From positions 2,244-66,243 of the forward strand of contig JBDUCR010000035.1 of NCBI GenBank assembly GCA_040003345.1: DNA of 64,000 nt. The letters are read 5' to 3'. The notes under the pieces are model-generated. The model was not told the origin of the DNA and made no database searches. It saw only the letters and a program-made list of their open reading frames with translations. Shown in pieces: positions 471 to 22,645 of the stretch. The DNA is from a bacterium (lineage in GTDB: Bacteria > Gemmatimonadota > Gemmatimonadetes > Gemmatimonadales > Gemmatimonadaceae). How positions within the stretch are numbered: position 1 is the stretch's first letter; each line of letters starts with the position of its first letter. Made by a program: the position numbers and the translations under genes.

Positions 471-499
471 TTGACTATTCGTCAAGATGTTGATAAGTT
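471..499 (+). promoter_or_regulatory. sigma70-like promoter candidate TTGACT-N17-TAAGTT upstream of the first BsuPI lipoprotein gene
   Basis: TTGACT at 471-476, a 17-nt spacer, then TAAGTT at 494-499, about 68 nt before the ATG at 567. Read directly from the sequence. Confidence 0.35.
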
Positions 500-566
500 C
501 GCAACCTGTCTGATGTGTGAGCGGAAGCCCGCTCAGCTCACGACGCCGCGCCCCAATCGGTTTGCC

Positions 567-1052
567 ATGAATTCCCGCTTGCTCATCACTCTACTCTGCG
601 CCGGAGCCGTCGCACTCGCGTGCGGTTCCCTGTCACGCAACGACACGTCGGAACCGCAGAAGACGAGCAGCGCACGACATTCGAGCAAACGCGCAAAACC
701 CGACAGCACCGCCAAGGTCAACGGCGATTTCGCCGTGAAGATCGAGGCGCACGCATTGCACTTCGCGCTCAACCTCACCAACGAAAGCAAGAAACACGTC
801 GAACTGTCATTCCCAAATGGACAGCAGTACGACTTCGCGGTGCTCGACTCTGCTGGACGCGAAGTCTATCGCTGGGGACAGGGCCGGATGTTCACACAGT
901 CGGTGCAGAACAAGTTGATCGACGGCGGCAAGACCATGAGTATCGACGAGCGTGCAGAGACAACGCTGCCGCATGGCAAGTACATCGCCGTCGCAACGCT
1001 GCGCAGTTCAAACTTCCCGCTCGAGGAACGCTCCACGTTCGAGCTGCGCTGA
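567..1052 (+). CDS. lipoprotein with BsuPI-like (intracellular proteinase inhibitor) domain
   Basis: Start moved to the ATG at 567 (MNSRLLITLLCAGAVALACGS, signal peptide plus lipobox Cys). The C-terminal ~100 aa carry the BsuPI pattern: LNLTNESKKHVELSFPNGQQYDFAVLD..REVYRWGQGRMFTQ. Confidence 0.6.
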   Translation: MNSRLLITLLCAGAVALACGSLSRNDTSEPQKTSSARHSSKRAKPDSTAKVNGDFAVKIEAHALHFALNLTNESKKHVELSFPNGQQYDFAVLDSAGREVYRWGQGRMFTQSVQNKLIDGGKTMSIDERAETTLPHGKYIAVATLRSSNFPLEERSTFELR

Positions 1053-1170
1053 TCATCTCGCGCATGTGACCGCGACGAATTCGTCATGGTTGTGCAAGTA
1101 GGATCCCACGCCACTCGGGTCTCCGGGTGGCGTTTTGTCGTCCTCCTCGCGCAATGTCGCGCACGCAATC

Positions 1171-2328
1171 ATGCGCATGCCATTTCCTGCACACACACTT
1201 CGCGCTGCGACCGCTGCCGCTGTGCTTCTCTCGTTTGTAGCCGCGTGCACCAGCGATTCGAATACCTCGCCGACACAGAGTGACGCAGCGCGTGCCGTCA
1301 TCATGTTTAGACAGCTCGCCGACTCTGTGTCTCGCAGCGGCGGCGATGCGCAGCTCGGCGGCGCATACGCTTCACTCGCTGAAGTCGTGCGAATGGGCGG
1401 ACGCATCTCGCCCGTCATCATCACGGTTGACGGTGTTGCCACGCCGTTCTCCGCCACAGCACTCTACACAGAAGTGAACACCACACCGCCGTGCGCCGTT
1501 CAGGTCTGCTCGACGATCAAACAGGTGAGCATCCTCCGCACACTCATCGCCTGGCAAGACAACGACCCTCGCCGCGTCGTTGAGCTCTCGTCGGAAGCCG
1601 ACACAAACGCGATTCACGCGTATGTCTTGCCCGTGACGGTCGCATATCCCGGTACATCGGCGGCTCTCGCCTTCTTCGACGGCAAGGGCGGAATGTTTTT
1701 CGGCACGAGTGGTACACAGACATTCGGCGTCACGACGAGTGAACTTCCCTGCACTAGCGCAGCGCCTGCGCCGTTCACGCCTGCCATCTTCCCCGCGCCG
1801 CCGCTCTGCACACAGGCGAACTTCTCCGTCGCATTCAATGCCACGGCGGAGCCATCACGCTTCCTTGCGAGCAAGAACAACGCGACTGGTACGCACACCT
1901 TCTCCATGTCAGCGCAACCCGTACTCGGCGCGCGCTTTCAACTCTCCGCGATCGTACCTCCACTTCCACCAATCATCGTGACACCATCCGCCGCGTTGCC
2001 CGCGACAATTAGTGTGAAGGTGGACAGCGTCGTCACGCTGACACTCACCGTGACGAATCCATCTTCGTCGCCAGTGACGGTCAACTTCAACAGCGGGAAG
2101 CACTACGATTTTATCATCATGGACGCGACAAATCGCGCGCTGATCTGGCGATGGGGAATGGGGATGATGTTCACGCAGGCGCTCTCGTCAGAGACAATTC
2201 CGGGAAACGGAAAGCTCGAGTACACGACCCAGTGGAAGCCCGCGAACAGCGGACAGTACATTGCCGTCGGATCGCTCGTGAGCTTCTCGCACCTCGCCGA
2301 AGCGAAGGCGCCCTTCACCGTTCCTTAG
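1171..2328 (+). CDS. large lipoprotein with C-terminal BsuPI-like domain (paralogous domain to 567..1052)
   Basis: ATG at 1171 (MRMPFPAHTLRAATAAAVLLSFVAAC lipobox); the ORF-track start at 1135 is TTG. The C-terminus LTVTNPSSSPVTVNFNSGKHYDFIIMDATNRALIWRWGMGMMFTQ aligns with the neighbouring gene. Confidence 0.55.
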   Translation: MRMPFPAHTLRAATAAAVLLSFVAACTSDSNTSPTQSDAARAVIMFRQLADSVSRSGGDAQLGGAYASLAEVVRMGGRISPVIITVDGVATPFSATALYTEVNTTPPCAVQVCSTIKQVSILRTLIAWQDNDPRRVVELSSEADTNAIHAYVLPVTVAYPGTSAALAFFDGKGGMFFGTSGTQTFGVTTSELPCTSAAPAPFTPAIFPAPPLCTQANFSVAFNATAEPSRFLASKNNATGTHTFSMSAQPVLGARFQLSAIVPPLPPIIVTPSAALPATISVKVDSVVTLTLTVTNPSSSPVTVNFNSGKHYDFIIMDATNRALIWRWGMGMMFTQALSSETIPGNGKLEYTTQWKPANSGQYIAVGSLVSFSHLAEAKAPFTVP

Positions 2329-2367
2329 CGACACGGCGGCACGCCTTCTGCCTGTTCGGGGCCCACT

Positions 2368-3231
2368 ATGGCCTCCATCTGGAAGGGCGCCCTCGCATTC
2401 GGGCTCGTCAACATCCCCGTGGAGCTTCGGCCCGCGGTCCGCAGCGCCGAAACGCTTTCGTTTCGGCAGCTCGACAAGAAGCATCACAAGCCGATCAAGC
2501 TGGAGCGTGTTTCCACGGTAGACGGCAAGACCGTTCCGTGGAAAGACATCGTCAAGGGATTTGAAGTCTCGCGCGGAAAATTCGTGATCGTCGAAGATGA
2601 AGACTTCGCGTCCGCCGCGCCCGAGATGTCACGCGTCATCGAGTTGACCGATTTCGTTCCCGCTGAATCGATCGATCCACGCTACTTCGATTCGCCCTAC
2701 TTCCTCGTGCCGCGCGAGGGCGGAGACAAGGCATACGCGCTGCTGCGCGACGCACTCGCCGAGACGAACAAGGTGGGCATCGGTACCTTCGCGCTGAGGC
2801 AGAAGCAGCATCTCGCCGCCGTGAAGGCCGTAGGCCAAGCGCTCGTGCTCGAGCTCATGCGCTTCGAGAACGAGCTCGTCGATCCCAGCGAACTGAAGTT
2901 CCCGACCGCCGCGGGCGCAAAGGTGCGGCCGCAAGAGCGCGAAATGGCCGTGCAGCTCATTGAGAATCTCGCCGACGACTTCGATCCGTCGAAGTACAAG
3001 GACGAGTATCAGAACAAGCTCAAGGCGATCATCAAGGCGAAAGCAAAGGGGAAAGCAATTCCCGTCGCCGACGTCGAAGAGCCGGAGAGCACGAAGGTGC
3101 TCGATCTCGTGAGTCGTCTCGAGGCAAGTCTTGCTGCGAGCTCGAAACGCGGCGGTGCCAAGACCGCGAAGAAGAAAACGGCGAAGAAGTCCGCAGCGAA
3201 GAAGACGACTCGTCGTCGCAAATCCGCGTAG
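2368..3231 (+). CDS. ku: Ku protein (non-homologous end joining)
   Basis: N-terminus MASIWKGALAFGLVNIPVELRPA is the hallmark bacterial Ku start. Lys-rich C-terminal tail (AKTAKKKTAKKSAAKKTTRRRKSA). Confidence 0.9.
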   Translation: MASIWKGALAFGLVNIPVELRPAVRSAETLSFRQLDKKHHKPIKLERVSTVDGKTVPWKDIVKGFEVSRGKFVIVEDEDFASAAPEMSRVIELTDFVPAESIDPRYFDSPYFLVPREGGDKAYALLRDALAETNKVGIGTFALRQKQHLAAVKAVGQALVLELMRFENELVDPSELKFPTAAGAKVRPQEREMAVQLIENLADDFDPSKYKDEYQNKLKAIIKAKAKGKAIPVADVEEPESTKVLDLVSRLEASLAASSKRGGAKTAKKKTAKKSAAKKTTRRRKSA

Positions 3232-3237
3232 CGCGCG

Positions 3238-4263
3238 ATGGCGCGCACGCCCGCTCCAATGCTCGCGTCGCCGGCGGGAGATCTCCCGCTGCTCGCGGGG
3301 TGGACCATCGAGCCGAAGTGGGACGGCATTCGCGTCATCGCGGACGCGACATCTCGCGGCACACATCTCTGGAGCCGCAACGGCATCGACAAAGCGCATC
3401 AGTTTCCCGAAGTCGCCGACGGCCTGACCAGTCTCGCGAAAACCAACGGCTCGCTCATCCTGGATGGTGAGCTCGTCGCCGTCGACCGCACCGGAAAGCC
3501 GCTTCGTTTTCAGGCACTGCAGAGCCGTCATGCGAGTGGCCGCAGTTCCGCCGCCAGCGACACACCGGCAACGCGCACGGCGTTCGTCGTCTTCGACGTG
3601 CTCTCGGCATCGACGCGCGACCTTCGCAAGCTCCCCTGGACCGCTCGTCGCGAGGTGCTCGAGTCAGTCGTGCCAAAGTCAGCGCGTGGATTCGTCCGTC
3701 GAGGCGATTCGTACAAGTGCGGCTCAGCCGGCGCAAAACGGATCATCGCTGCTGCACAGCGCGACGGGTGGGAAGGGTTGATCCTCAAGCAGATGGACGC
3801 GCCGTACACGTCGGGGCAGCGCTCCCCGCTCTGGCGGAAAGTGAAGCTCGAGCACGAGCAGGAGTTCGTTATCGGCGGCTACACGCTTCCCACTACAGGC
3901 GCCGACCGCTCGCACCTGGGCGCGTTGCTCATCGGCTACTACGACGACGAGGGTAAGCTCCGCTACGCTGGCAAGGTCGGTACCGGATACACGCGCGCCA
4001 CGCTTGCGGAGCTTGGCAAGAAGCTCGGCGCCCTGCGTCGCGCGACATCTCCGTTCGTCGACGCGCCGAACAAGCGCGATCCCGCCGAGTGGGTCAAGCC
4101 GAAGCTCGTCGCCCAGATCCGCTACAATGAGATGACGGACGGCGGTGTACTGCGCCAGCCAAGCTTCCTCGGTCTTCGCGATGACAAGGATGCGAAAGAC
4201 GTTCGCCTCGAGGCGGATACGTCGCGGAAAGCGGTCCTCGAAACGCTCCGCTGCGCATCCTGA
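3238..4263 (+). CDS. ligD: ATP-dependent DNA ligase, LigD ligase domain only (no polymerase or phosphoesterase domain)
   Basis: Adenylation motif EPKWDGIR (KxDG). 341 aa. Starts 7 nt after the ku stop. The length fits adenylation plus OB domains only. Confidence 0.85.
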   Translation: MARTPAPMLASPAGDLPLLAGWTIEPKWDGIRVIADATSRGTHLWSRNGIDKAHQFPEVADGLTSLAKTNGSLILDGELVAVDRTGKPLRFQALQSRHASGRSSAASDTPATRTAFVVFDVLSASTRDLRKLPWTARREVLESVVPKSARGFVRRGDSYKCGSAGAKRIIAAAQRDGWEGLILKQMDAPYTSGQRSPLWRKVKLEHEQEFVIGGYTLPTTGADRSHLGALLIGYYDDEGKLRYAGKVGTGYTRATLAELGKKLGALRRATSPFVDAPNKRDPAEWVKPKLVAQIRYNEMTDGGVLRQPSFLGLRDDKDAKDVRLEADTSRKAVLETLRCAS

Positions 4264-4481: not shown

Positions 4482-5495
4482 GTGACGAGCTCTCTCAAAG
4501 TCAGCCACGCACGCGACGACAGTCGCGACCTCGAGCTGCTGGATCAGCTCGCCGCCGCGCGCGCCGCGCTGAACGAGCAGATCGCCCGCCGCATCATCGG
4601 CCAGCGTGACGTCGTGGACAACCTCGTGGCCGCCATGCTCTCCGGCGGTCACGCACTGCTCGTCGGTGTGCCCGGCCTCGCAAAGACGTTACTCGTGCAG
4701 ACAGTGGCCCAGGCGCTCGATCTTCAGTTCTCGCGTGTGCAGTTCACGCCGGATCTCATGCCGAGCGACATCACTGGCACCGAGTTGCTCGAGGAGGATC
4801 ACGCCACTGGCCGTCGCTTTTTCAAGTTCGTGCACGGGCCGGTGTTCGCGAACATTGTCCTCGCAGACGAGATCAACCGCGCGCCACCGAAGACGCAGGC
4901 CGCACTGCTTCAGGCCATGCAGGAACACAACGTCACGGCCGCCGGCAAGACGCACAAGCTGCCGGAACCGTTTTTTGTGCTCGCAACGCAAAACCCCATC
5001 GAGCAGGAAGGCACGTATCCCCTGCCTGAAGCACAGCTCGATCGCTTCATGGTGCAGCTCACCGTCGGCTATCCGTCGCGCGAGGAAGAAGAGCGCATCG
5101 TGGTGGAGACGACGTCAGATCGCGAGATCGAAGTGAAGCCCGTGCTCACCGGTGCGCAGCTGAGTGAGCTCCTCCATCTCGTGCGACGCCTGCCGGCGGC
5201 GCCGAGTATCGTGAGTTATGCAGTGAAGCTCGCGCGCAGCACGCGGCCGGATTCGCCGGAAGCGTCGCCGCTGGTGAAAAAGTACGTCAGCTGGGGCGCC
5301 GGTCCGCGCGCATCGCAATACCTGATACTCGGCGCCAAGGCCCGCGCGGCGATGGATGGCCGCGCCATGCCGGATATGGAAGACGTTCAGGCGATGGCAG
5401 TGCCGGTGCTCATGCATCGCGTCGTGCTCAACTTCCAGGCGGAAGCCGAGGGCGTGACATCGAAGTCGATCATCGACGGATTGGACAGGAAGTAG
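4482..5495 (+). CDS. MoxR-family AAA+ ATPase
   Basis: GVPGLAKT Walker [23 protein letters not shown] and [22 protein letters not shown] motifs typical of MoxR. GTG start. Confidence 0.9.
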
Positions 5496-5520
5496 GCGCG
5501 CTGCGCAGTCTCTCGCGAAG

Positions 5521-6063
5521 TCAGGTGCGCAGCTTCGCTCTCGCCTCACTCACTTTTCGCGCGAAAATCGTCGCATCCTGCTCGGAGAAGTTGGCCATCA
5601 ACGGCGTGTTGTTCAGCTTGACGTCGCGGAAAACTTCTTCGCCGTTTCTGCGCTTGAGCTGAAGACGTCCGTCCGCGTATTGCGCCGTCGACAGATCGCG
5701 CAGATGATACGCGATGCCATGATCGAACACAGGTTGAAGCGCGCCGAGTACCATGCGGGCGATCATGCGCTCGTTCGTGCCCTTGATCGAATCCGTGGCG
5801 GCACCTGCGTTCTTCATGCGATCGAGGCCGCGGTCAGTGAACTGCATCACGATGGTGGTGTCCAGCAGCACCAACGCGCCTGAGCCGTCTTTGCTGGTGA
5901 TGGCATAAGCACCGCTAGCGGGATTCGCACGCGGAACGATGTGCGCAACGGAATCCGGCAGACGCACATTGAAATTCACGCCAGTGTCCTGCGCGCGCAC
6001 GGGCGATGCGATCAGAGCGAGCGCGGCAAGAGCAGACAGCGAAAGGCGGTGGGGCAGACGCAT
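5521..6063 (-). CDS. secreted hypothetical protein
   Basis: Start moved to MRLPHRLSLSALAALALIASPVRAQ (signal peptide). The longer ORF-track start would overlap the upstream kinase gene. No recognisable domain. Confidence 0.5.
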   Translation of the reverse strand: MRLPHRLSLSALAALALIASPVRAQDTGVNFNVRLPDSVAHIVPRANPASGAYAITSKDGSGALVLLDTTIVMQFTDRGLDRMKNAGAATDSIKGTNERMIARMVLGALQPVFDHGIAYHLRDLSTAQYADGRLQLKRRNGEEVFRDVKLNNTPLMANFSEQDATIFARKVSEARAKLRT

Positions 6064-6131
6064 GCGGGATTCTCCGGCAAGTGGAAGGACGAGAATCCGT
6101 ACGCCACCGTGAATGAAAAGGTTCCGCTTCC

Positions 6132-10972: not shown

Positions 10973-11117
10973 GGTTTGGTACGTCCCGACTGAAGCCAAG
11001 ATGCCGAGGAAGCTTGATTCCCCGGGCAATCAGAGACGTATCTCGTTTAGGGCCAGCGGCTTGACTCGCGGACGTGCCGGCGTTTGAGCACGGTGGCACG
11101 CCGTATTGCCTGTTGCC

Positions 11118-11146
11118 ATGACGTTCTCATGACGCCATTGTAGAGA
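11118..11146 (+). promoter_or_regulatory. tandem heptamer direct repeat (ATGACGT / ATGACGC, 11-nt period) plus TAGAGA -10-like hexamer upstream of STAND paralogue 1
   Basis: Heptamers at 11118-11124 and 11129-11135. TAGAGA at 11141-11146. 72 nt separate the second heptamer from the ATG at 11207. Confidence 0.5.
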
Positions 11147-11158
11147 TTGCTTTGCCGA

Positions 11159-11182
11159 CGCGCGCGACGCCGCTCGCAGTAC
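11159..11182 (+). repeat. 24-nt leader element CGCGCGCGACGCCGCTCGCAGTAC, identical copy at 17969-17992
   Basis: Exact 24/24 identity read from both loci, in the 5' leaders of paralogues 1 and 3. Confidence 0.8.
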
Positions 11183-11206: not shown

Positions 11207-14200
11207 ATGAGCGACGCCCCCCCGTCCGCTGCTCGGCTCATTGAGGATCTCGGCGTAAAGCCACGCTCCAGTCGGTCTGGGGCGGGCACCGTGCCGATCG
11301 ACCGCTCACCAATGCGCCTGCGCATCCTCGGCGAGTCCGCGATCACGATCGGCGGCAAGGATTACACGCCGTCCGGGCAACACTTCTTCGCGCTGTTGCT
11401 TCGGCTTGGCGTCGACGCTGGCCGGTACTATCAGCGCCACGAGGTTGCGAGCCTCTTCTTTCCACAGGCACCCACCGCGAGTGCTGCGCTGCACAGCGCC
11501 CGTCAGTTGATCTATCAGGCGGCGGCAAGAGGCGCACCGATCGTACGAGTCAATGGTGCTGTTGCGCTGGATCCATCGTGCGTGAGTATCGATTTCGAGG
11601 AAGCGATTCTCGAGGATCAGGCTTCTGTCGGCTCGCGGTATCGGCCTGTCGGCGTCCTGCCTGGATACGCTCCGTCGATTTCAGACGAGCTTGACGAATG
11701 GCTCGAATCATATCGCGCACAGCAACAGGCGCGGTTTAGACATGCACTCGTCGAGGCGATCAGTGTCCTCCGGCGCCGAGCCGACTGGCGTGGCGTGGAA
11801 GCGCGTGCGCGGGAGTGTCTCTCTCTGGATCCACTGAGCGAGCCAGCGACGCTCGCTCTTGCGGAGGCATTGGCGCATACGGGATCGAAGGAACTCGCAG
11901 TCGCCACTCTCGATGCATACCGCGTGGAAGTCGCGCGTCGCAACATCGATATCGCGATGCCTGCCGCTTTGCTACGCAAGAGAATTGCGAGTGGTCCATT
12001 GCGCGACCGCCCGCCGATGGAGACAGCGTTCGTTGGTCGCGGCGCGGAGATCTCTGCTCTGCACCGACAGTGGCAGCGCGCTCGTGACGGGAACCTTGAA
12101 TACACGCTGATTCGCGGCGAGCCCGGCTCCGGAAAGACGCGGCTGATGGAGGAATTTCACGGGCTCGTAAGCCTGTCAGGCGGAAGCAACATCATGTTCG
12201 TGCGGCGCGCGGCATCGGAACCGTTCCGACCATACGCGTTGTTTGCCGAGCTGGCGTCGCATCTCATGCGAATGCCGGGTGCAGCTGGATGCAATCCCGA
12301 GTTGCTCCCGTTCCTTACTCGCTTGACGCGTGCAACGTTCGCGCGGGAAACTGACCCGACGACACCTGACGAGACCGCGTTCATCAGCACTGGCATCAAG
12401 CGCGCGATCGTCGACTTGATTGAATCTGTCAGTGGTGAGAAGCCCTGCCTTATCCTGTTGGACGACAGCCGAGCGATAGATGATGTGTCTCTTGGGCTTC
12501 TTCGCGAGCTTCCTGCTCTGGCACCGACACTCAGAGTTCATCTGGCCATCACGTGTGACACGCTTGACTCGCGCGAAGACATGTTGCTTCCATCGTCAGC
12601 AACGCTATCGCTCACTCCACTCTGTGCAGAGGCATCGCAGGAACTGCTGACAGGCTTGTTGGCAAAAATGGATCGTCGTCTCGATACCGAGACTTTCGAG
12701 TGGTGCGTAAGGGTGGCCGCTGGCAATCCCGCCTTTTTATCGCTGCTTGGCGCGCATGCGGCTGAGTCGCCGGGGTTGCCGGACGTGCCGGTGGACATCA
12801 TCGAGGTCGTCGACAAACGCATCGCCGGCCTCTCGCCAATTGTGGTACGCGTACTCGCGGCGTGCGCGGTCCTGGGCGACGACGATTGCACTTCTCACTT
12901 GTTGGAGTGTGTGCTAGCAATCGAGCCGTTGGCACTTCTCGGTGCGCTGCATGAGCTGGAGCATGGCGGCTTGATCGCCTACAGTGATGAGCGCATTCAT
13001 TTGCGCAGTGCGCTCTTCCGCGATCGTGTTCTTCAGTCGACCGGCGGTTCGGTTTTGAGCCTCTTGCATGGTCGTTGCGCGGCCGCCATGGAGGCCGAAC
13101 CGGCGAGCGCCGGATGTGACTGGCGCATTGCATCTCATTGGAGGCGTGCTGGCCAGCACAATCGAGCACGAGCGACGCTGATGAATTCATGGCGCGCCAG
13201 CCTTCAGTTGGGACAACCCAAGCAAGCGGTCGCGAGCCTTCGCGAATACCTCTCCTTAACGACGGACACGGTTGAGCGCGTCACACTCCATGATGGCCTG
13301 ATTGAGCTGACGCAGGCTATGCGCGACGGGCAAGCAACGGTACAGGCGATCGACGAAAGGCAGAAGCTTGTGTGCGCCGCGCAGCTCAACGACCCTCGTC
13401 GCGAGGCGCTTTCGTTCGACCGTCTCGACGCGGTGTTTCACGACGATGGCGATCAGTCCGCATATGCCAGTGAGCTCGTCGCGTTCATGAATTCGCGTGA
13501 GCTGGACACTCATCGCAGACTATCTGCCTCGCTCGAACTCATGATCTGCGCTGATGCTAAAGTTGATCCGGTGCTGGCGGATATGGTGCTGAAGAAGTTG
13601 CTCGTTCCAGACGAGTCGGATCAAAGAGCGCGACACACTTATCACTCCATCAAACTCATCTTTCACAGCGTATTTGGAGACAAGAGTGAGGCGCTGCGAC
13701 TGAGTCGTGAACTCATTTCATCCACTGCTAGCGACTTTGGTCATTGGCCAGATGCTCGCGCAAGGTTCAGAGCCTCCATGGCGATCTTGCTTACCGGCGA
13801 CGCGAGAGCAGCGACGGATCTCCTCGAGGCTTGCTATGCGCGGTTTGCGTCAGCGGGGGCCCTCTCCACTTGCGTGGCGATTTCGGGACGGCTGGCCAAC
13901 TTCTATTTTGACGAAGGCGATTTGGACCATGCACGTGAGTGGGAACGACGAGCGGCAGCTCACGTAGCGGAGGATGTCGAGCGCATCTTGCCGTGCGAGT
14001 ATCTGAGTGTGCGTGCCGATCTAGCACTCGTAGCCGGTGACTTCGCGACAGCTCGTGGTGCCATCGCGGTAATGCGCGATGCGAATCCTCTTTACCGTGC
14101 GCCGCGATACAGCATGGATCTGCTAGCGTACGAACTTCGATTGGCGCAGTTTGAAGGCGCTCCTGTGGCTGATTCCGATGTTCAGCGGTTGCTGGATTGG

Positions 14201-14431
14201 CATTTTATCGCTCGCGGTTACACGCGACACGATGATGTCATGGACTCTCTTTGGGTGGGTTTAGTCGCGCAAGGACGCGCGTCGTACGCGAGCAGTCTGC
14301 TGCGGGAATACTTGTGCCACTTTCGTCGCGAGCCCAAGGTGTGCGCCTTCCTCCTAAGGACACGCACAGCCGGCGATCCGGCATGGCTTATGGCCGCGCC
14401 CACAGCAACTCCCACCGTTCGGTCAACGTAA
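11207..14431 (+). CDS. SARP/AfsR-like STAND regulator, paralogue 1 (wHTH - BTAD - P-loop NTPase - helical/TPR-like C-terminal region)
   Basis: The wHTH-like region HFFALLLRLGVDAGRYYQRHEVASLFF..SARQLIYQ aligns with the other two copies. BTAD-like LDPLSEPATLALAEALAHTGSKELAVATLDAYR. Walker A GEPGSGKT and Walker B ILLDDSRAIDD. About 650 aa of helical C-terminus. Start set at the ATG at 11207, analogous to copy 3; 11312 (MRLRILG) is also possible, and the ORF-track TTG at 11147 is unlikely. Confidence 0.8.
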   Translation: MSDAPPSAARLIEDLGVKPRSSRSGAGTVPIDRSPMRLRILGESAITIGGKDYTPSGQHFFALLLRLGVDAGRYYQRHEVASLFFPQAPTASAALHSARQLIYQAAARGAPIVRVNGAVALDPSCVSIDFEEAILEDQASVGSRYRPVGVLPGYAPSISDELDEWLESYRAQQQARFRHALVEAISVLRRRADWRGVEARARECLSLDPLSEPATLALAEALAHTGSKELAVATLDAYRVEVARRNIDIAMPAALLRKRIASGPLRDRPPMETAFVGRGAEISALHRQWQRARDGNLEYTLIRGEPGSGKTRLMEEFHGLVSLSGGSNIMFVRRAASEPFRPYALFAELASHLMRMPGAAGCNPELLPFLTRLTRATFARETDPTTPDETAFISTGIKRAIVDLIESVSGEKPCLILLDDSRAIDDVSLGLLRELPALAPTLRVHLAITCDTLDSREDMLLPSSATLSLTPLCAEASQELLTGLLAKMDRRLDTETFEWCVRVAAGNPAFLSLLGAHAAESPGLPDVPVDIIEVVDKRIAGLSPIVVRVLAACAVLGDDDCTSHLLECVLAIEPLALLGALHELEHGGLIAYSDERIHLRSALFRDRVLQSTGGSVLSLLHGRCAAAMEAEPASAGCDWRIASHWRRAGQHNRARATLMNSWRASLQLGQPKQAVASLREYLSLTTDTVERVTLHDGLIELTQAMRDGQATVQAIDERQKLVCAAQLNDPRREALSFDRLDAVFHDDGDQSAYASELVAFMNSRELDTHRRLSASLELMICADAKVDPVLADMVLKKLLVPDESDQRARHTYHSIKLIFHSVFGDKSEALRLSRELISSTASDFGHWPDARARFRASMAILLTGDARAATDLLEACYARFASAGALSTCVAISGRLANFYFDEGDLDHAREWERRAAAHVAEDVERILPCEYLSVRADLALVAGDFATARGAIAVMRDANPLYRAPRYSMDLLAYELRLAQFEGAPVADSDVQRLLDWHFIARGYTRHDDVMDSLWVGLVAQGRASYASSLLREYLCHFRREPKVCAFLLRTRTAGDPAWLMAAPTATPTVRST

Positions 14432-14571: not shown

Positions 14572-14602
14572 ATGACGCGCCAGTGACGCTCTCCCCAATA
14601 CT
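14572..14602 (+). promoter_or_regulatory. tandem heptamer direct repeat (ATGACGC / GTGACGC, 11-nt period) plus AATACT -10-like hexamer upstream of STAND paralogue 2
   Basis: Heptamers at 14572-14578 and 14583-14589. AATACT at 14597-14602. 68 nt to the ATG at 14657. Confidence 0.5.
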
Positions 14603-14656
14603 CGGTGCAGGCTCGGCGGCGCCCCCCACTTTCCTCGATCGCCAGGACGAGAGAGC

Positions 14657-17600
14657 ATGAGCAAAGTCCACCTTTCCATTCTCGGCGATTGTATCATCGA
14701 TGTCGATGGCACCCAGGTGACTCCGGCTGCGCCGCACCTCTTCGCGCTGCTGCTCATCCTTGCGCTGGAGCGAGAGCGGAAGGTATGCCGATCCGAGCTC
14801 CAGATCCTTCTCTTCGAGCAAGGCATCGACGCGCGCCAGGCATCTCACAATTTGCGACAGCTGCTGTACCGTCTTCGCCGCATGGGCCTACAAATCGACG
14901 ACGGCCCGTCCGGCATGAGCCTCACGAATGTAGAAGTGCTTCCGCCGATGCATTGCTTGGAAGGGAAGAGCATCGAGGAGCGCGCTGTCGTCACGCGCGA
15001 ATCGCTACAGGCACTGCCGTCGTATACGCCCCGCCTTTCGAAGCCCTTCGCGGAGTGGATCGAGCAGGCAACAGAGCGGATCAACGACGGCGTTCGGAGC
15101 TTGTTGCTATCGGATCTACGAGCGTTGCGATCGTCGCGCGCGTGGCTTCACACCTCCCGCCTGGCCGCAACTCTTCTTCTGTTCGACCCTTTGAACGAAG
15201 AGGCAGTGATTGCCAGAGCGGAAGCGCTCGCGATGCTTGGCGATCGCGATTCCGCGCTCGACGCACTTGATGCGTACATGCGCGAAGCAGATGGTGGGTC
15301 TCAGAACACGCGCGAAGTACGATCACTCCGGGCGAGAATAGCCCGACGATCGCCTAGCGGGGCCGCCGAGCTTCTTCTTGGTCGGACGACGGCGCTCGAA
15401 GGACTTGAGTCCGAATGGAACAGGGCGCAGTCGGGCGGCGGCGCCCGACTGCATGTCATCATCGGCGCTCCAGGCATCGGAAAGACGCGTCTTCTACAGG
15501 AGTTTTCCGCCACCATCGGCTTGCGGCGAGCTCACGTCATTCATCATCGCTGCGATAGCCAATCGCGCGCATATCCCCTCTCGCTGTTCTCGCAGATTCT
15601 GCCGAACCTGCGCGCCATGCGCGGAAGCTTAGGTGCATCGCCGCAATACACGCAGACGCTTGATTTGCTTCGACCCTCGCTCGATTCATCTCAAACTGCA
15701 ATTCCGGAGGGGCTCTCAATCGAAGCGGTCCGCGCCGAGGTTCAGTTCGCGTTGGTGGATCTCATGGAGGCAGTGAGCTGTGAGCAGCCGATTCTTCTTG
15801 CAGTGGATGACGCGCATCTTCTCGATGACGCCTCCGTCTCGATGCTGCGCGTGCTGAGCACGTCCGCAAATGCCGCGGAGCTCTTGATCGTCGCCTGCAG
15901 TCGACCCTCCTCCGGTCCGGCGTCGCTTCTCGAGCGCGGACAGCGCGCCACTTCTCAACTTCTTTCTCCGTTGAACGCGAGTGACTCGCGAGCCTTGCTG
16001 CTCGCGCTTGCAACGACTCCGGATGCGAATCGCGACGACTTCGAATGGTGTCTCGCTCAATCCGGCGGGAACCCGTTCTACATTCACGCGCTGGCCAAGC
16101 ACGACCTCAAGCCGCCGACATTGGATTCGGTTCCGTTTGACCTTCACTCACTTGCATCCTCCTCGTACTTCGCGCTGCGCTCGCCGGCGCGTTTGGTGCT
16201 CGAGTCCTGTCTCGTACTCGGCCTCCACGCTACGATAGGTCGCGTCGGGCTCGTTTCCGGATTGGATGAGCTGGAGCTGGTGTCAGCCCTTCGCGAGCTC
16301 GAAGAGCAGGATCTCATCCGTTTCGGAGATGACAGAATCTTGGGCCCGCATTCGCTCCTTCACGATGCGCTTCGTGGGTTCGTCCCTACAACTGTGCGTG
16401 CGTTGTTGAACAAGCGTGGTGCACAAGCACTCGCCGAAGAGTGCATGGAGCGCGAATACTCCACGTCATTGGCCCTCGCCGCGGCGGATTGCTGGATCGC
16501 CGCTGGTGACGTTCTCACCGCCCTTGGTCTCCTTAGACGTTGCGCCTCCGAGGCTGCGTCAATCGGTGAGCCTGCGGCTGCCGCCGAGCTTCTCAGTCGC
16601 ATGGTTCACGCATCACTCCCGCTGACAGAGCGACGCTCGCTGTTGGACGACATCGTCAGATACGCTAGTACGGGCGGTTCCCCTCAGCTTGCGGCAGACT
16701 CATTGCGGGAGCGCTTGGCGGTTGCGCGCGCTTTGAACGAGCCATCGACGTCGACCCAAGAGCTCGAGTTCCGTATCATTGAAACGGACATGCAGAACGA
16801 AGTAGAACAGGTGGATGCCGTTGATCCGCTTCTGTCACTCCTCAATCACACTCTCTCGAGCCCCGGTCTTCGTGATCGAATACTGGTCCGCCTAATGATG
16901 ATTGCCGACGGTGAATTCGACGTGACTCTCGCCAAGTCACTTTACGAACAGTCGCTGACGCACGACGACATCAACGCGACTCGGTCGGCGAGTAAGCTTA
17001 TAGCACTTTTAGTCTACCATACGACATTTGGCAGCCGTGATCGTGCATGCGCTCTCGCCGACGAGCTGCTCGCTCGCTATCCCGTTGCCTCGCTGGATGA
17101 GCTCTCTTTGAGAGCCCGTTACAATGCGCTTTTTGCGCTTTACAGGTTGCGTCGCACTGACACGTTATGCGCGATCCTCGAAGCAGAATATCGATTCATG
17201 GCCACTCACGACATCCGCTCCGCCGCGCTACATGCTGCATCACTTCTCATGGAGGTCACGATCTCAGTTGGCGACATGGCCGCCGCAGTGCATTGGCTTG
17301 CCGCGTCGGAGGAGCTCTTATGCGGCGCCACAGTGCATAAGCTCGCGCCCCACAGCGGGCATAATTCGTCCGCTGCGCTGCTAGCAACGTTGGATGGACA
17401 CTTCGAAGTGGCGGAAAAGTTCAACGCGCTCTTGCGCGATGAATCCCGAATGAAGTCGGCTCGCTTCGAGGCGATTTGTCTTTCGTTGCGACTGCGTGTA
17501 TTTGCGTTACAAGGCTCCGTGGACGATCACAAGGAGCTTTCGCTCCGACTGAGGGATTTGTATGAGCGTGGTCGACGTCTTGGTGGACAAGACGTGATCG

Positions 17601-17800
17601 TCGAAGTGCTGTGGCGAATCGAAGCTTTGGCTGGCAATCATGCCGCCGCATCCCAAATGCTGAGTGAATATCTCAGTGATCATCGTCGGGAGCTTGGCCC
17701 GCCTGAGTGGCTTTTGCGGGTCACCACCTCGGCAGATGCCGCGTGGAAAGTATCAAAAATGGGGCAAGACCGCCGAGCGGACACGTCGACTGCGGCGTGA
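14657..17800 (+). CDS. SARP/AfsR-like STAND regulator, paralogue 2
   Basis: wHTH-like HLFALLLILALERERKVCRSELQILLF...QASHNLRQLLYRLRRMG. BTAD-like FDPLNEEAVIARAEALAMLGDRDSALDALDAYM. Walker A GAPGIGKT (about nt 15464-15487) and Walker B ILLAVDDAHLLDD. Long helical C-terminus with the conserved block GGQDVIVEVLW...YLSDHRRE. Confidence 0.85.
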   Translation: MSKVHLSILGDCIIDVDGTQVTPAAPHLFALLLILALERERKVCRSELQILLFEQGIDARQASHNLRQLLYRLRRMGLQIDDGPSGMSLTNVEVLPPMHCLEGKSIEERAVVTRESLQALPSYTPRLSKPFAEWIEQATERINDGVRSLLLSDLRALRSSRAWLHTSRLAATLLLFDPLNEEAVIARAEALAMLGDRDSALDALDAYMREADGGSQNTREVRSLRARIARRSPSGAAELLLGRTTALEGLESEWNRAQSGGGARLHVIIGAPGIGKTRLLQEFSATIGLRRAHVIHHRCDSQSRAYPLSLFSQILPNLRAMRGSLGASPQYTQTLDLLRPSLDSSQTAIPEGLSIEAVRAEVQFALVDLMEAVSCEQPILLAVDDAHLLDDASVSMLRVLSTSANAAELLIVACSRPSSGPASLLERGQRATSQLLSPLNASDSRALLLALATTPDANRDDFEWCLAQSGGNPFYIHALAKHDLKPPTLDSVPFDLHSLASSSYFALRSPARLVLESCLVLGLHATIGRVGLVSGLDELELVSALRELEEQDLIRFGDDRILGPHSLLHDALRGFVPTTVRALLNKRGAQALAEECMEREYSTSLALAAADCWIAAGDVLTALGLLRRCASEAASIGEPAAAAELLSRMVHASLPLTERRSLLDDIVRYASTGGSPQLAADSLRERLAVARALNEPSTSTQELEFRIIETDMQNEVEQVDAVDPLLSLLNHTLSSPGLRDRILVRLMMIADGEFDVTLAKSLYEQSLTHDDINATRSASKLIALLVYHTTFGSRDRACALADELLARYPVASLDELSLRARYNALFALYRLRRTDTLCAILEAEYRFMATHDIRSAALHAASLLMEVTISVGDMAAAVHWLAASEELLCGATVHKLAPHSGHNSSAALLATLDGHFEVAEKFNALLRDESRMKSARFEAICLSLRLRVFALQGSVDDHKELSLRLRDLYERGRRLGGQDVIVEVLWRIEALAGNHAAASQMLSEYLSDHRRELGPPEWLLRVTTSADAAWKVSKMGQDRRADTSTAA

Positions 17801-17931: not shown

Positions 17932-17960
17932 ATGACGCTCAAATGACGCCATAGTAGAGA
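17932..17960 (+). promoter_or_regulatory. tandem heptamer direct repeat (ATGACGC / ATGACGC, 11-nt period) plus TAGAGA -10-like hexamer upstream of STAND paralogue 3
   Basis: Heptamers at 17932-17938 and 17943-17949. TAGAGA at 17955-17960. 59 nt to the ATG at 18008. Confidence 0.5.
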
Positions 17961-17968
17961 CTGCTACT

Positions 17969-17992
17969 CGCGCGCGACGCCGCTCGCAGTAC
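17969..17992 (+). repeat. second copy of the 24-nt leader element CGCGCGCGACGCCGCTCGCAGTAC
   Basis: Identical to 11159-11182. Confidence 0.8.
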
Positions 17993-18007: not shown

Positions 18008-21000
18008 ATGAGAAGCATGACGTACATCCGTCTTTCGATCGTCGGAGACTGTCGCATCGACGTTGATGGCGTCGCGATCACGCCGGCGTCGCCGCATCTG
18101 TTCGCGGTACTACTCATCCTCGCCGGTCGGCGAGAGGGGCAGCTCAGCCGGAACGACCTTCAGAAGCTGCTGTTCGAACCGAACGTGGCTCCGGAACAAG
18201 CATCTCACAATCTGCGGCAATTGCTGTATCGCGTCCGCCGCTTAGGAATCCGAGTCGATGAAGGCTCGTCCGGACTTTCGCTCGCCGACGTTCACGTTTG
18301 TGATCCGCTGCAGGAGACTATCGATCTCGGCGCACCGGGCCGCGCGCGGCAATCACCAGCGGCATATCGCGTTTTGCCGATATACGCTCCGCGCTTGCCG
18401 AAGTCATTTGCACACTGGGTCGACGACTTCGCGGATTGCCTGAATGGCCAACTCCGCAGCCTGTTACTCGAGGATCTCGAGCAGGCCCGCGCATCGCATT
18501 CGTGGGCGGACGCACTGACACTCTGCGACTCTCTCACGCACATCGATCCGTGCAATGCCGTCCTTCTTCGTTCGAGGGCGGAGGCGCTGGCGATGCTTGG
18601 ACGCAGGCGCGATGCACTCGCGGTGCTGGATCAGTTTCTCCAAGAGAACACGGATGACGATTGCGCGGTCAAAGCAGCGCGCGTGCTTCGTACACGCATC
18701 GAGAAATCTCCATCGCTCAAACGTGTCACCCCCCTAAAGGCGCGCGCCACGTCTCTCGCATTTCTCGATCACGAGTGGGCGAAGGCCACCACGGAAGGGG
18801 CGAGCTTGAGCGCGATAGTCGGCCAAGCTGGAATAGGCAAAACACGATTGTCCGAGGAGCACGCGGCGCGTGTCTCGTTAGCCGGAGGTCGCGTAATTCG
18901 ATATGTGTGCGATAGTCAGTCGAAGACACAGCCACTTTCCTTGTTTTCTCAGATATTAGCTGAACTCTGTTCCGCTCGTGGCAGCCTTGGAGCCTCTCCG
19001 GAACATGCACGAGCACTCGCACGACTCCGCACAGAGGCTCAAACACTGACCGAAGGCTGTGTGGAGAGTACTTCGATTGAAATCCGTAGAGCAGAGATTC
19101 AATATGCTCTTATCGATTTGATCGAGGCTGTCAGTGCGGAACGATCGCTGTTGCTTTTGATTGATGACGCTCACTACCTCGACGAGGCATCGCGTTCCGT
19201 TATCCGCGGGCTTGTCAACAATAGCGATGCCCGAGCGCAGGTTCTCGTTTGCCTTCGCCCTTCGTCGAACAACTCCTCGCTGCTTGCCGCGACGACTAAA
19301 ACGGCGATCCACGAACTATGTCCGCTGTCGGCGGCAGACAGCCGTGATCTTGTCACGCTTCTGCAGGGTGGCATCATCCCGGACGAGGAGCACGTGACCT
19401 GGTGCGTGGAACAGTCGGCTGGCAATCCGTTCTTCCTGCACGCGCTTGCGCTTCATCGAGGGAGCACGTCCACCAGTATTCCATTCCGTATCCAGTCTCA
19501 CGCAGCGAGCTCGTATTCGTCTCTTGCGGAGGCGAGCCGTAGCGTGCTCGAGGCCTGCTTGCTTCTCGCTCGGTTTGCGACCCTGGATCGCACGCGCGCG
19601 GTTGTCGGCATCGATAACGCCTGCCTTCTCTCAGCCTTTCGAGAGCTCGAGGAATACGGGCTCATTGAGTTTCGACAGGGCAGGCTCTACGGCCCACACG
19701 CGCTCATACACGACGCGTTGCTGGATTTGATCCCCACGTCGGTCGCGGCGCTTCATCATCGACGAATTGCGGAACTGCTTGAGCAGGAGTGTGTTGCAGA
19801 GCAATACGATTCTTTACTGGCATGGTCGTGCGCTCAGAGCTGGCTTGCCGCTGGGAATCCAGTTGCTGCCACTCGACTTATGCGTCGATGCGCCAGTCAG
19901 GCCGCCGCTCTCGGGGAGCCGTCGGCAGCAGCTGGATTTCTTCTTCAGCTTCTCACCTCAGCGGTGCCGTCGTCACTGAAGGGTGAGTTACTGGATGACA
20001 TCATCCACTATGCGCAGGTTGGAGGGGCCTTTCAAATATCCGCTTCGGCGCTCAGAGACAGGCTTCAGCTCGCAATCGAGCGCGGTGAGAGCGAAGGCGA
20101 TCGCAAGTCAATACAATTTCAAGTAATCGAAGCCGATCTTCTCAACGGCGCGCCAGTAGCCAGCACTCTTGCGTCCCTCATGGACCTTCTACACGACCTC
20201 TCGGCGCCGGTCTCGATCCGCACGAGGGCTGGCGTTCGATTGATTGTGATAGCCGACCTGAATTACGATGCAGTTTTGGCGAACAGCGTGTATTCCGTTC
20301 TACGTACGATCGGCATCAGCGACCTTCAACAATCGTCACATCTAACGCGCGCCGAACTGGTTTATCACGTCACGTTTGGTGACCCTGCGCGCGCACGCTT
20401 ACTCGCGGCAACACTGCTGTCGGCGTTTCCTGAACCTGACGTGCTTGAATGCGCAACCCGTGCTCGCACCTATGCGGCTTTCGCGTATTATCGAATGCGT
20501 GAAACGTCCAAGTCCCGCGAGCTCTGCGAAGCTGAGTATGCGTTCATGAAGGCGAGTGGAGCGTTCCAGTCCGCACTGTATGCTGCATCGTTGCTAACAG
20601 AAATTGCCATTACCGATGGTGACTTCGTGTCAGCGACCAAGTGGCTCGAGACCGAGAACGCTGGCTATGGAGTCGTATCGCAGCGCCCGCACTCACCTAG
20701 CCTTTGCTATTGCGCCAACGCGGCGGAACTCGCGATGATGCGAGGTGCCTTTGATGAGGCTGAGCGATTTGTTGCCCCACTCGCTGGTAACTCGTTGCTG
20801 TCCGCTCCGCGATTGAAAGCGGTATCGCTGGCATTGCTGATTCGATTGCAACAGCGTCGCGCCGAGACGAAGGTCGCAGGCGCCGACGTCGCGCTGCTTT
20901 TCGATTTGTATCAGAAAGGATGCGATTTGGGAGGCCAGGATGCCGTCGTTGAGGCGCTGTGGTGCTGTGAGATCATCACTGGCAACGCGACGGGAGCTTC

Positions 21001-21259
21001 ACGGCTTCTTCGGGACTATCTCGCAAATCATCGTCGCGAACGAGGACGCCCGGACTGGTCATTGAGACACACTACGGCTGCGGATGATGCGTGGGTCGAA
21101 TTCATTCCTGCATTGCCAAAGGTCGTGCGGGGCAGTGATAGACGATCTTCTGACCGGGCGTATTCCCGAGCCGCCTATGCTGCGCTCAACAGTGAGCGCG
21201 CCAACAGCGACGCAGCGAAGGCATCACATCCGCTTCCTGACAGGCTGGTCTTAGGATAG
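18008..21259 (+). CDS. SARP/AfsR-like STAND regulator, paralogue 3
   Basis: wHTH-like HLFAVLLILAGRREGQLSRNDLQKLLF...QASHNLRQLLYRVRRLG. BTAD-like IDPCNAVLLRSRAEALAMLGRRRDALAVLDQF. Walker A GQAGIGKT and Walker B LLLLIDDAHYLDE. C-terminal block GGQDAVVEALW...YLANHRRE, plus an extra ~70-aa tail. Confidence 0.85.
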   Translation: MRSMTYIRLSIVGDCRIDVDGVAITPASPHLFAVLLILAGRREGQLSRNDLQKLLFEPNVAPEQASHNLRQLLYRVRRLGIRVDEGSSGLSLADVHVCDPLQETIDLGAPGRARQSPAAYRVLPIYAPRLPKSFAHWVDDFADCLNGQLRSLLLEDLEQARASHSWADALTLCDSLTHIDPCNAVLLRSRAEALAMLGRRRDALAVLDQFLQENTDDDCAVKAARVLRTRIEKSPSLKRVTPLKARATSLAFLDHEWAKATTEGASLSAIVGQAGIGKTRLSEEHAARVSLAGGRVIRYVCDSQSKTQPLSLFSQILAELCSARGSLGASPEHARALARLRTEAQTLTEGCVESTSIEIRRAEIQYALIDLIEAVSAERSLLLLIDDAHYLDEASRSVIRGLVNNSDARAQVLVCLRPSSNNSSLLAATTKTAIHELCPLSAADSRDLVTLLQGGIIPDEEHVTWCVEQSAGNPFFLHALALHRGSTSTSIPFRIQSHAASSYSSLAEASRSVLEACLLLARFATLDRTRAVVGIDNACLLSAFRELEEYGLIEFRQGRLYGPHALIHDALLDLIPTSVAALHHRRIAELLEQECVAEQYDSLLAWSCAQSWLAAGNPVAATRLMRRCASQAAALGEPSAAAGFLLQLLTSAVPSSLKGELLDDIIHYAQVGGAFQISASALRDRLQLAIERGESEGDRKSIQFQVIEADLLNGAPVASTLASLMDLLHDLSAPVSIRTRAGVRLIVIADLNYDAVLANSVYSVLRTIGISDLQQSSHLTRAELVYHVTFGDPARARLLAATLLSAFPEPDVLECATRARTYAAFAYYRMRETSKSRELCEAEYAFMKASGAFQSALYAASLLTEIAITDGDFVSATKWLETENAGYGVVSQRPHSPSLCYCANAAELAMMRGAFDEAERFVAPLAGNSLLSAPRLKAVSLALLIRLQQRRAETKVAGADVALLFDLYQKGCDLGGQDAVVEALWCCEIITGNATGASRLLRDYLANHRRERGRPDWSLRHTTAADDAWVEFIPALPKVVRGSDRRSSDRAYSRAAYAALNSERANSDAAKASHPLPDRLVLG

Positions 21260-21319: not shown

Positions 21320-22645
21320 TCAGCGCGGCGCTCCGACTGTCATCAACCGTAGTTTGCTGACGCGAGAGGTGGCACGATCGGCCGGCGGAAAAAGCCAGCC
21401 CCAAAAGTCGCTGGCTAACAACTGATCAGCGATCTGTGGATCAAACTGCCTTCCGCGACACCGAATGATTTCGGCGCGAACGACATCTTCGCCAAGAGAG
21501 CCGCGATACGGTCGCTCGGTTGTCATCGCGTCGAAAGTGTCGGCGAACATGATGATTCGCGATGCGATTGGAATGGCTTCTTGTTTCAAGCCCCTTGGGT
21601 AACCCGTCCCGTCCCAATTCTCGTGATGGTGACGCACCGCGGGAACCAATTCCCGAAGGCGCGTCATTGTTGCGATAAGCTGCGCGCCATCCTCTGGATG
21701 TTCTTTGATGACAGCCCACTCCTCAGGAGTTAAGCGTTCTTCTTTCGCTAAGATGGGCGCGTATTTGTCGTATATCTTCCCGACGTCATGCAAGAGCGCA
21801 GCAGTTCCTATTTTCTCAACCTCAGTAGCCGGCAAGCCAAGCAGGCGGGCGATCTTGATCGCGTATTCCTTGACTCTCCTCGAATGACCGGAGGTGTAGG
21901 GATCGCGTGCCTCGATCGATTTGACCATCAGTTCGAGCAACTCCTTATTCGTCTGAGCCAGCTCGAGATTCGCCGTATTCATCTGCCGAATTCCGAGAAT
22001 TGGCAACCAGAGCAAAGACGCAAACAGCGGACCGAACCGGGAGTACACCCAAGCGAATGCAAAAACCACGGGCAGCGCCATAATGTCGAGACCAACCGTT
22101 GACGCATTGTTCTCGCGCCAGACATGCATCGTCCGCGCGTTTGTGGAAAGCGCGATTACATGGCTCACTTGCAGCGTGTTCATGATAAAAACGACCGCGT
22201 ACGCAATAACGAGCGGGACGCCGACGAGTAGAGTTATCGCGTAAACCGATAACTCTTGAAGTCCGAAAAGGCTTACTCCTCCGAGCGTGCGATATACGAT
22301 AATCCCGAGCGAATAGCTCAGGATGATTTCACTACAGTTGAAGATGATCTTAAGCGGCTCCTTTTTTTTTGTAGTCTCCGAAATCACATGGGCTGCGCCG
22401 ATCGCCGCGAGCGCCGCGAAATTGGGCACCAACATCAGCGTCGTTAGGTAGGGAATAAATGAAATCGAACCTGATGCACCAGCCGGAAGCAGGAAACCCA
22501 TCAACTCTGCCGTAAGGGCGAGAAGTGATAAGGTCACTATTGTTCCTAGATTGAAGTCCGCAGCCGGAGGTGCGACGCGCCAGACCACGACGCACGCACC
22601 AATCGCTAGAGCGCAAATCAATTGTATGAATGACTTTGCTTTCAT
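21320..22645 (-). CDS. multi-TM HD-GYP domain protein (predicted cyclic-di-GMP phosphodiesterase)
   Basis: About 230-aa N-terminal region with 7-8 hydrophobic helices, then HSRRVKEYA, ALLHDVGKIY and HHENWDGTGYPRGL (HD and GYP signatures). Visibly lower G+C than the flanks. Confidence 0.85.
   Translation of the reverse strand: MKAKSFIQLICALAIGACVVVWRVAPPAADFNLGTIVTLSLLALTAELMGFLLPAGASGSISFIPYLTTLMLVPNFAALAAIGAAHVISETTKKKEPLKIIFNCSEIILSYSLGIIVYRTLGGVSLFGLQELSVYAITLLVGVPLVIAYAVVFIMNTLQVSHVIALSTNARTMHVWRENNASTVGLDIMALPVVFAFAWVYSRFGPLFASLLWLPILGIRQMNTANLELAQTNKELLELMVKSIEARDPYTSGHSRRVKEYAIKIARLLGLPATEVEKIGTAALLHDVGKIYDKYAPILAKEERLTPEEWAVIKEHPEDGAQLIATMTRLRELVPAVRHHHENWDGTGYPRGLKQEAIPIASRIIMFADTFDAMTTERPYRGSLGEDVVRAEIIRCRGRQFDPQIADQLLASDFWGWLFPPADRATSRVSKLRLMTVGAPR

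Follow-up and report, generated by a model that had tools for sequence, protein, structure and literature searches.

Pairs of TGACG repeats one helical turn apart upstream of a family of AfsR-like regulators in Gemmatimonadota suggest a self-activating promoter circuit

Three long paralogous open reading frames follow one another on the plus strand of the window, i.e., the whole 64-kb stretch of DNA that was analysed. Paralogue 1 (11207–14431; 1074 aa if translation starts at ATG 11207), paralogue 2 (14657–17800; 1047 aa) and paralogue 3 (18008–21259; 1083 aa) encode putative SARP-NOD-TPR regulators. The product of copy 1 is 28% identical to those of copies 2 and 3, which share 42% identity between them. 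Convergent with paralogue 3 is a minus-strand gene for an HD-GYP-like HD_5/MASE9 protein (21320–22645), followed on the same strand by two more conserved convergent neighbours, a gene for a 260-aa protein with no Pfam match (22896–23678) and a gene for a sigma-54 enhancer-binding protein (23820–25712). The minus-strand genes between 21320 and 25712 are context for what follows; no spaced pair of the kind described below precedes them in the window. At positions 468–4263, the window encodes two proteins with BsuPI (intracellular proteinase inhibitor) domains and, after them, an NHEJ pair of Ku and an ATP-dependent DNA ligase; the BsuPI genes show synteny in 26 loci.

The intergenic region in front of each paralogue contains one pair of direct heptamers on the plus strand. 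Box 1 (11118–11135), located upstream of paralogue 1, consists of ATGACGT (11118–11124) and ATGACGC (11129–11135) separated by tctc. Box 2 (14572–14589) consists of ATGACGC (14572–14578) and GTGACGC (14583–14589) separated by gcca, and box 3 (17932–17949) of ATGACGC (17932–17938) and ATGACGC (17943–17949) separated by tcaa. When the window sequence was read back, all six heptamers were found on the plus strand where the initial annotation had placed them, and the 11-nt period it had described holds at all three boxes. A scan of both strands of the 64-kb window with the spaced pattern RTGACGYNNNNRTGACGY (RTGACGY-N4-RTGACGY) returned three matches, all of them these plus-strand boxes, which agrees with the earlier statement that the window has no further pair spaced by 11 nt. 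Dinucleotide-preserving shuffles of the window contained 0.05 spaced pairs on average, and none of 100 shuffles reached three. The single heptamer is not enriched in the window (75 observed, 71.7 expected), and pairs with one mismatch also occur there at chance level (13 observed, 11.5 expected). It follows that the signal resides in the exact pair at the 11-nt period.

All three proteins carry an AAA_16 P-loop NOD (residues ~240–446, E-values of 1e-15 to 1e-18; residues 240–412 in paralogue 2) with an invariant GxGKT(R) Walker A motif, in line with their initial description as STAND-type proteins. The same description assigned them an N-terminal winged helix-turn-helix and BTAD. Residues 1–250 of paralogue 2 (14657–15406) were modelled with AlphaFold2 from a 21-sequence alignment. 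The model (pLDDT 90.7, pTM 0.82) shows strand, helix and wing elements followed by helices, and the six best matches returned by Foldseek from the PDB are the SARP domain of AfsR in transcription initiation complexes (8k60, 8hvr) and EmbR (2fez, 2ff4), with E-values of 1e-5 to 6e-5 and TM-scores of 0.63–0.66 over ~254 columns at an identity of 17–19%. These are the only PDB matches at E < 1e-3; the next ones are generic TPR proteins at E > 0.02. The model gives the N-terminal 250 residues the fold of a SARP domain, i.e., an OmpR-type winged helix plus a BTAD, as had been assigned. The C-terminal ~600 aa of paralogue 2 are helical-repeat-like, and the domain architecture of paralogue 3 is the same.

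The relationship to AfsR and EmbR, as modelled, is visible at the level of the fold only. The Pfam Trans_reg_C profile (PF00486) does not match the proteins of the window, and the BTAD profile (PF03704) scores 15.3 and 15.8 bits with copies 1 and 3 (E ~0.02), below the cut-off of 22.1, and does not match copy 2. Among 21 N-terminal sequences of the family, sub-threshold matches were obtained for BTAD in 8 (best E-value 1.5e-5) and for Trans_reg_C in 6 (best E-value 0.0096), a weak hint in the same direction as the predicted fold. When a profile HMM of the N-terminal domain was run against PDB sequences, only TPR proteins were retrieved. No Response_reg match was found in the proteins of the window and the winged helix is N-terminal, a layout different from that of OmpR/PhoB response regulators. 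Pfam detects no significant TPR match in the last ~600 aa of the window proteins; some homologues have precomputed TPR_MalT/TPR_12 matches. The nearest database proteins, which are 42–51% identical, come from Gemmatimonadota MAGs and soil metagenomes (several of these contigs carry two paralogues), and many members bear the JGI label "DNA-binding SARP family transcriptional activator". Taken together, the model and the domain order describe strongly diverged large SARPs composed of a SARP domain, a NOD and a long helical C-terminus. The putative recognition helix of the family, H-x-L-R-Q-L-L-Y-R-L-R, is near-invariant, with R67 and Q68 invariant; paralogue 3 has SHNLRQLLYRVRRLG at this position. 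Copy 1 and its counterpart in locus L003 share a divergent helix, HSARQLIYQAAARG, and keep the same box, and copy 1 may thus be acted on by copies 2 and 3 and not bind the box itself.

In order to follow the boxes beyond the window, GTDB was scanned with a 10-sequence alignment as a seed, one genome being used per species, and 60 loci were retrieved, nearly all of them from Gemmatimonadota. Three distant homologues fetched separately brought the set to 63 homologous loci, Gemmatimonadota MAGs being the source of almost all of them. For each family gene of the window and the 60 loci, the N-terminus was located and 300 nt upstream of it were inspected. A TGAC-N7-TGAC pair is present within these 300 nt upstream of 52 of ~63 family genes, 49 of which lie outside of the window. 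One of the sites belongs to a locus of Gemmatimonas phototrophica (L041), a member of a cultured genus. A TGACG-N6-TGACG pair is also located in front of the three distant homologues, which are 25–28% identical.

When the sites were aligned on the pair, the R-T-G-A-C-G columns of both repeats were found to be invariant or nearly so (1.5–2.6 bits), with a weaker preference for G at positions −2 and +9 and for C or G at the seventh heptamer position. The consensus is therefore two direct (G)RTGACG(S) repeats with an 11-bp period, GRTGACGS-N3-GRTGACGS, and all three boxes of the window are in register with this logo. The heptamer had been annotated as (A/G)TGACG(C/T), which fits the six copies of the window; across the family, the seventh base is C or G instead of C or T. 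No third repeat is present in the family sites at plus or minus 11 or 22 nt. Nearly all flanking columns between −45 and +110 contain at most 0.2 bits. Since the upstream DNA has diverged to randomness except for the pair, simple inheritance by duplication is excluded.

The 11-nt spacing stands out in the same way. In 636 kb of DNA (the window and the loci, both strands), 53 TGACG pairs are spaced by 11 nt, and every other spacing from 5 to 40 nt is represented by 1–13 pairs. Of the 53, 51 precede family genes. The enrichment upstream of genes that the initial annotation had proposed to look for by a scan for the spaced pair is thus present in the 636 kb of Gemmatimonadota DNA. The remaining two pairs are L013:9167 and L006:11694(−). 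The former belongs to a second box that lies, together with a promoter and the first ~60 nt of a leader, directly after the stop codon of the STAND gene (L013, 9160–9260). This region is near-identical to the gene's own upstream region and has no gene behind it; judging from its sequence, it was left behind by a tandem paralogue that has been lost. The latter (L006, 11679–11694, minus strand) lies ~88 nt upstream of an ORF of 262 aa that heads an operon with an HD-GYP gene, and no other TGACG-N6-TGACG pair precedes a gene outside the family. This operon is a candidate target on sequence grounds; at the equivalent position in 26 other loci, window included, no pair was found, so L006 is one of 27. 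No further targets were found in the 636 kb, and a circuit in which a regulator has no local target but its own gene gives an incomplete picture.

A larger search was made in metagenomes with the pattern GNTGACG-N6-TGACGNC-N8-ANNNT, which has ~14 fixed bases. None of the 121 matches listed (in at least 120 stretches) precedes a family gene. Applied to the known loci as a positive control, the detection pipeline recovered 51 of 53. With ~14 fixed bases, chance matches and unrelated elements rich in TGACGTCA dominate at metagenome scale, and the scan is uninformative on the regulon. An AT-rich element, GTTTTATTACGATGACGTCACTGTGACGTCATTTATAAACATTAAATATG, with two TGACGTCA palindromes recurs on many unrelated-looking metagenome contigs (L073, L096, L117, L127, L134, L138, L143, L156, L161, L170, L172, L176 and L180). 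It is unrelated to the Gemmatimonadota box and clearly a repeated or conserved element, belonging to another organism or a mobile element.

In a numbering that starts at the T of the first TGACG, the aligned sites conserve, besides the repeats, an A at +26 (67%) and a T at +30 (73%). An A-N3-T with its A at +26 is present in 34 of 52 sites and with its A at +25 in another 11 (45 of 52 in total, compared with a per-position background of 3%), which leaves a gap of 8 nt (34/52) or 7 nt (11/52) after the second heptamer. We take the fixed A-N3-T as the predicted signature of a −10 hexamer (nAnnnT). The family logo places the predicted −10 elements of the window at GAGATT (11143–11148, with A 11144 and T 11148), AATACT (14597–14602) and GAGACT (17957–17962), all on the plus strand and all 7 nt after the second heptamer, i.e., with the minority gap and not the 8 nt of most sites. 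The corresponding transcription starts are predicted at ~11154–11156, ~14608–14610 and ~17968–17970. Previously, the −10 had been read as TAGAGA in copies 1 and 3 and as AATACT in copy 2. Both hexamers exist where claimed, and AATACT is retained; TAGAGA was dropped in favour of GAGATT and GAGACT because of the family-wide A-N3-T register, the earlier assignment for these two copies being probably off by 2 nt.

No −35 hexamer is present at a usable spacing, the spacer to the A-N3-T being 19–20 nt from the first TGACG and 8–9 nt from the second, and a σ70 consensus scan called no −35/−10 promoter in the three intergenic regions. The SARP-type geometry that had been suggested is thus found here: an 11-nt period, an A-N3-T 8 or 7 nt after the 3′ heptamer, and no −35. 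Just 5′ of box 1, at 11100–11115, lies TGGCACGCCGTATTGC, a TGGCAC-N6-TTGC sequence resembling the −24/−12 elements of σ54 promoters. With one base in excess and no conservation in homologues, it was rejected as a σ54 promoter of copy 1 and is considered a chance occurrence.

The distance from the pair to the start codon varies, typically from 41 to 100 nt, and is 196 nt for copy 1 of the window. Since the distance to the A-N3-T is fixed and that to the start codon is widely variable, the pair is more probably a promoter element acting at the DNA level than an RNA element. The initial annotation put the pairs 59–72 nt before the start codon. This is correct as measured to ATG 11207, 14657 and 18008 (72, 68 and 59 nt); for copy 1, the start itself is uncertain. 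The N-terminus common to the homologues (MRLRILGE) begins in copy 1 at ATG 11312, in which case the pair may lie ~177 nt from the real start. Over the ~57 nt that extend to ATG 11207, aligned with ATG 18008, copies 1 and 3 are ~85% identical. Within this stretch, in the predicted 5′ leaders, lies a 24-nt block, CGCGCGCGACGCCGCTCGCAGTAC (11159–11182, plus strand), that is identical to 17969–17992 and far better conserved than the coding sequences of the two copies; its 16-nt core also occurs in one other genome, at L004 5954–5969. From its sequence, the block would either belong to the leader as an element of its own or bear witness to a transfer of promoters between the paralogues. The simplest reading is that a copy-3-type promoter was transplanted together with the first codon in front of copy 1, which would give copy 1 either a 35-aa N-terminal extension or a leader of ~157 nt.

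Eleven homologues have no pair in the 300 nt upstream (L009, L010, L016, L019, L020, L021, L024, L028, L032, L044 and L057). They form a coherent subclade that has the same recognition helix as the rest of the family. Ten of the eleven (L020 was not aligned) share a different long upstream region, ~250 nt before the match at ~6000, with a single (A)TGATGAYG, a TCTGGCGCA motif, CATACTGG, the −10-like CCATACTGG and a TTCCCCCCGAAG stretch, which points to another promoter and leader architecture. Because the box-less subclade has the same helix, there is no covariation of helix and box that would tie the protein to the site. With a helix that is essentially invariant, this subclade included, covariation has no power as a test of the binder.

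The surroundings of the family genes are conserved as well. An upstream MoxR-type AAA_3 ATPase recurs in 40 loci, and downstream, convergent with the family genes, the fetched loci contain the HD_5/MASE9 gene (30 loci), the gene for a ~270-aa protein (~260–280 aa; 28 loci) and that for the sigma-54 enhancer-binding protein (27 loci). The convergent module is also present at L006 8934–13734, L013 9285–10631 and L181–L184 ~4650–6090. This synteny suggests a functional link to c-di-GMP or sigma-54 signalling. Other neighbours are Ku/LigD, histidine kinases and GcvT. Neither a biosynthetic gene cluster nor a conserved response regulator gene was found among the neighbours.

The box is conserved, stands in a fixed register with a −10-like element and is specific for genes of one family, whose products have a SARP fold at the N-terminus. 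The reading that we favour, with a probability of roughly 65%, is that of an AfsR-like (SARP-NOD-TPR) family of Gemmatimonadota whose members activate their own and each other's promoters, in agreement with the auto- and cross-regulation suggested in the initial annotation. From the above, we infer that the family proteins are the binders, that their effect is activating and that transcription starts at the predicted positions. The family proteins are the putative binders because their domain type is one that uses this geometry, because the recognition helix is as conserved as the TGACG core, and because the box is near-exclusive to their own promoters, each tandem paralogue having one. The promoter would consist of two (G)RTGACG(S) repeats one helical turn apart with an nAnnnT 7–8 bp further on and no −35, and would depend on an activator. 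By analogy with cryo-EM structures of AfsR at the afsS promoter, two SARP domains would bind the repeats side by side, head to tail; occupying the place of the −35, the pair would recruit RNA polymerase and σ region 4 ("sigma adaptation"), and transcription would start ~7 nt after the −10. Given that the box is nearly confined to the promoters of the family, positive auto-regulation with cross-regulation among paralogues is the simplest circuit; it would be gated by a signal sensed by the NOD-TPR part. Box and regulators together point to a self-activating switch as in the antibiotic regulators of Streptomyces.

The most serious competitor to self-activation, a live but clearly less probable alternative, accepts a real tandem winged-helix site and assigns it to another protein, an OmpR/PhoB-type response regulator or a small SARP, with the STAND genes as its regulon. 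PhoB/OmpR boxes have the same geometry (7-bp direct repeats with an 11-bp period in place of the −35), and three features described above fit such a binder: recognition helix and box do not covary, the box-less subclade has the same helix, and copy 1 combines a divergent helix with the same box. A global regulator, however, would be expected to show more targets than the 51 of 53 pairs (636 kb) in front of family genes and the one in front of another gene. No response regulator gene is conserved in the neighbourhood, and the family itself carries a DNA-binding domain of the type that uses this geometry. Far less probable is the idea that the first TGACG is merely a −35-like (TTGACA-like) element for the housekeeping or an alternative/ECF σ factor, with the second copy incidental and no dedicated activator involved. 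ATGACG does agree with TTGACA at 4 of 6 positions, and with a 17-nt spacer it reaches TAGAGA in the window. Yet the conserved A-N3-T falls at +25/+26 to +29/+30, which leaves the unusable spacers given above (19–20 nt from the first TGACG and 8–9 nt from the second); both repeats, including the purine that precedes them, are equally and completely conserved, as a spacer would not be; and the σ70 scan calls nothing in these regions.

It is more improbable still that the repeats act in RNA, as a 5′-UTR element or as the site of an RNA-binding protein. The pair does precede the start codon by 41–100 nt, and the transcription start is a prediction, but the repeats are direct and not inverted, their register is fixed to the −10-like element instead of the start codon, and a period of one helical turn is a property of double-stranded DNA. 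The lowest probability of all falls to the view that the pairs are a chance pattern or non-functional relics of tandem duplication or of promoter gene conversion. What speaks for it is the ~57 nt shared at ~85% upstream of copies 1 and 3, whose proteins are 28% identical, which suggests promoter transfer. Upstream of copy 2 and of ~50 homologues from different genomes, on the other hand, the pair and the A-N3-T are all that is shared, and none of the 100 shuffles contained as many as three pairs. We regard relics and chance as effectively refuted by the family footprint and the spectrum of spacings.

A wider proposal goes beyond the circuit of self-activation and is put forward tentatively, with somewhat less than even odds. 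It holds that the locus represents a phylum-wide syntenic module, in which AfsR-like regulators, often in tandem, form a closed loop of positive feedback and cross-activation via a dedicated GRTGACGS-N3-GRTGACGS box essentially confined to their own promoters and are constantly paired with a convergent HD-GYP (c-di-GMP phosphodiesterase-like) gene, the ~270-aa gene and a sigma-54 activator. If true, no SARP box or SARP circuit would have been defined outside Actinomycetota before, and the module would offer a case of a SARP whose main conserved target is itself, i.e., a bistable switch and not a pathway activator.

SARPs have been studied almost entirely as activators of antibiotic pathways in actinomycetes. 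Their protein architecture and promoter geometry are seen here, strongly diverged, in the conserved core genome of a soil phylum that has received little attention, and the "sigma adaptation" layout of SARP promoters would accordingly be older and more widely distributed than work on Streptomyces suggests. For studies of regulation in Gemmatimonadota, the box offers a precise handle, with a defined operator, a predicted −10 and transcription start, and a putative auto-activation circuit that can be tested in cultured Gemmatimonas species. Actinomycete origin and control of a secondary-metabolite cluster are not traits of the present family, which comes from Gemmatimonadota MAGs and has no such cluster, and our literature search found no paper on SARPs in Gemmatimonadota. 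Among SARPs, the closest in layout is AfsR of Streptomyces coelicolor, a large SARP with the same order of SARP domain and NOD; a long helical C-terminus follows here. Like afsR, the family genes do not lie beside a biosynthetic cluster, which makes them similar to a global regulator and unlike cluster-situated SARPs. They differ from AfsR in the low identity (17–19%), in that Trans_reg_C and BTAD remain below threshold in the window proteins, in belonging to Gemmatimonadota and not Actinomycetota, and in forming tandem arrays of 2–3 paralogues. The afs box of the afsS promoter has the same two direct repeats, the same 11-bp period, a poor or absent −35 and the same distance to the −10. In contrast to the afs box, the core of the repeats is RTGACG, and the box stands in front of the regulator's own gene, the classical target of AfsR being afsS.

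According to the rule described for SARPs, the direct repeats are 11 bp apart and the 3′ repeat is located 8 bp from the −10; two adjacent protomers occupy the 22-bp afs box, which lies across a poor −35, and contact σ region 4 and the RNAP core, an arrangement termed "sigma adaptation" (PMC10936776). The heptamers of small SARPs are direct repeats, usually with 4-nt spacers, that lie over the −35, and here too 8 bp separate the 3′ repeat from the −10 (PMC10936776; PMC10972967). Heptameric direct repeats at the −35 and the same −10 rule are thus common to our family and to small SARPs such as ActII-ORF4, DnrI, RedD and CcaR. Small SARPs lack NOD and TPR parts, are situated in clusters and often have three repeats. 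The family box, by comparison, has exactly two repeats and no biosynthetic cluster nearby.

EmbR of Mycobacterium tuberculosis has the SARP-domain fold (2fez, 2ff4) and is among the top structural matches. It carries a C-terminal FHA domain instead of the NOD-TPR part, and its targets are the embCAB genes. Outside the SARPs, PhoB and OmpR boxes are pairs of 7-bp direct repeats that a 4-bp spacer sets one helical turn apart, and they replace the −35; their winged helices bind head to tail and contact σ region 4. Unlike PhoB and OmpR, the family proteins have no receiver domain, and their N-terminal DNA-binding domain is fused to BTAD-NOD-TPR; the family repeat differs from the CTGTCAT of the pho box in sequence and in strand sense, and no Pho-type gene with the box was found in the 636 kb examined. 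In kind, the mechanism proposed here is a known one; what is new is the very divergent family and the phylum in which it occurs.
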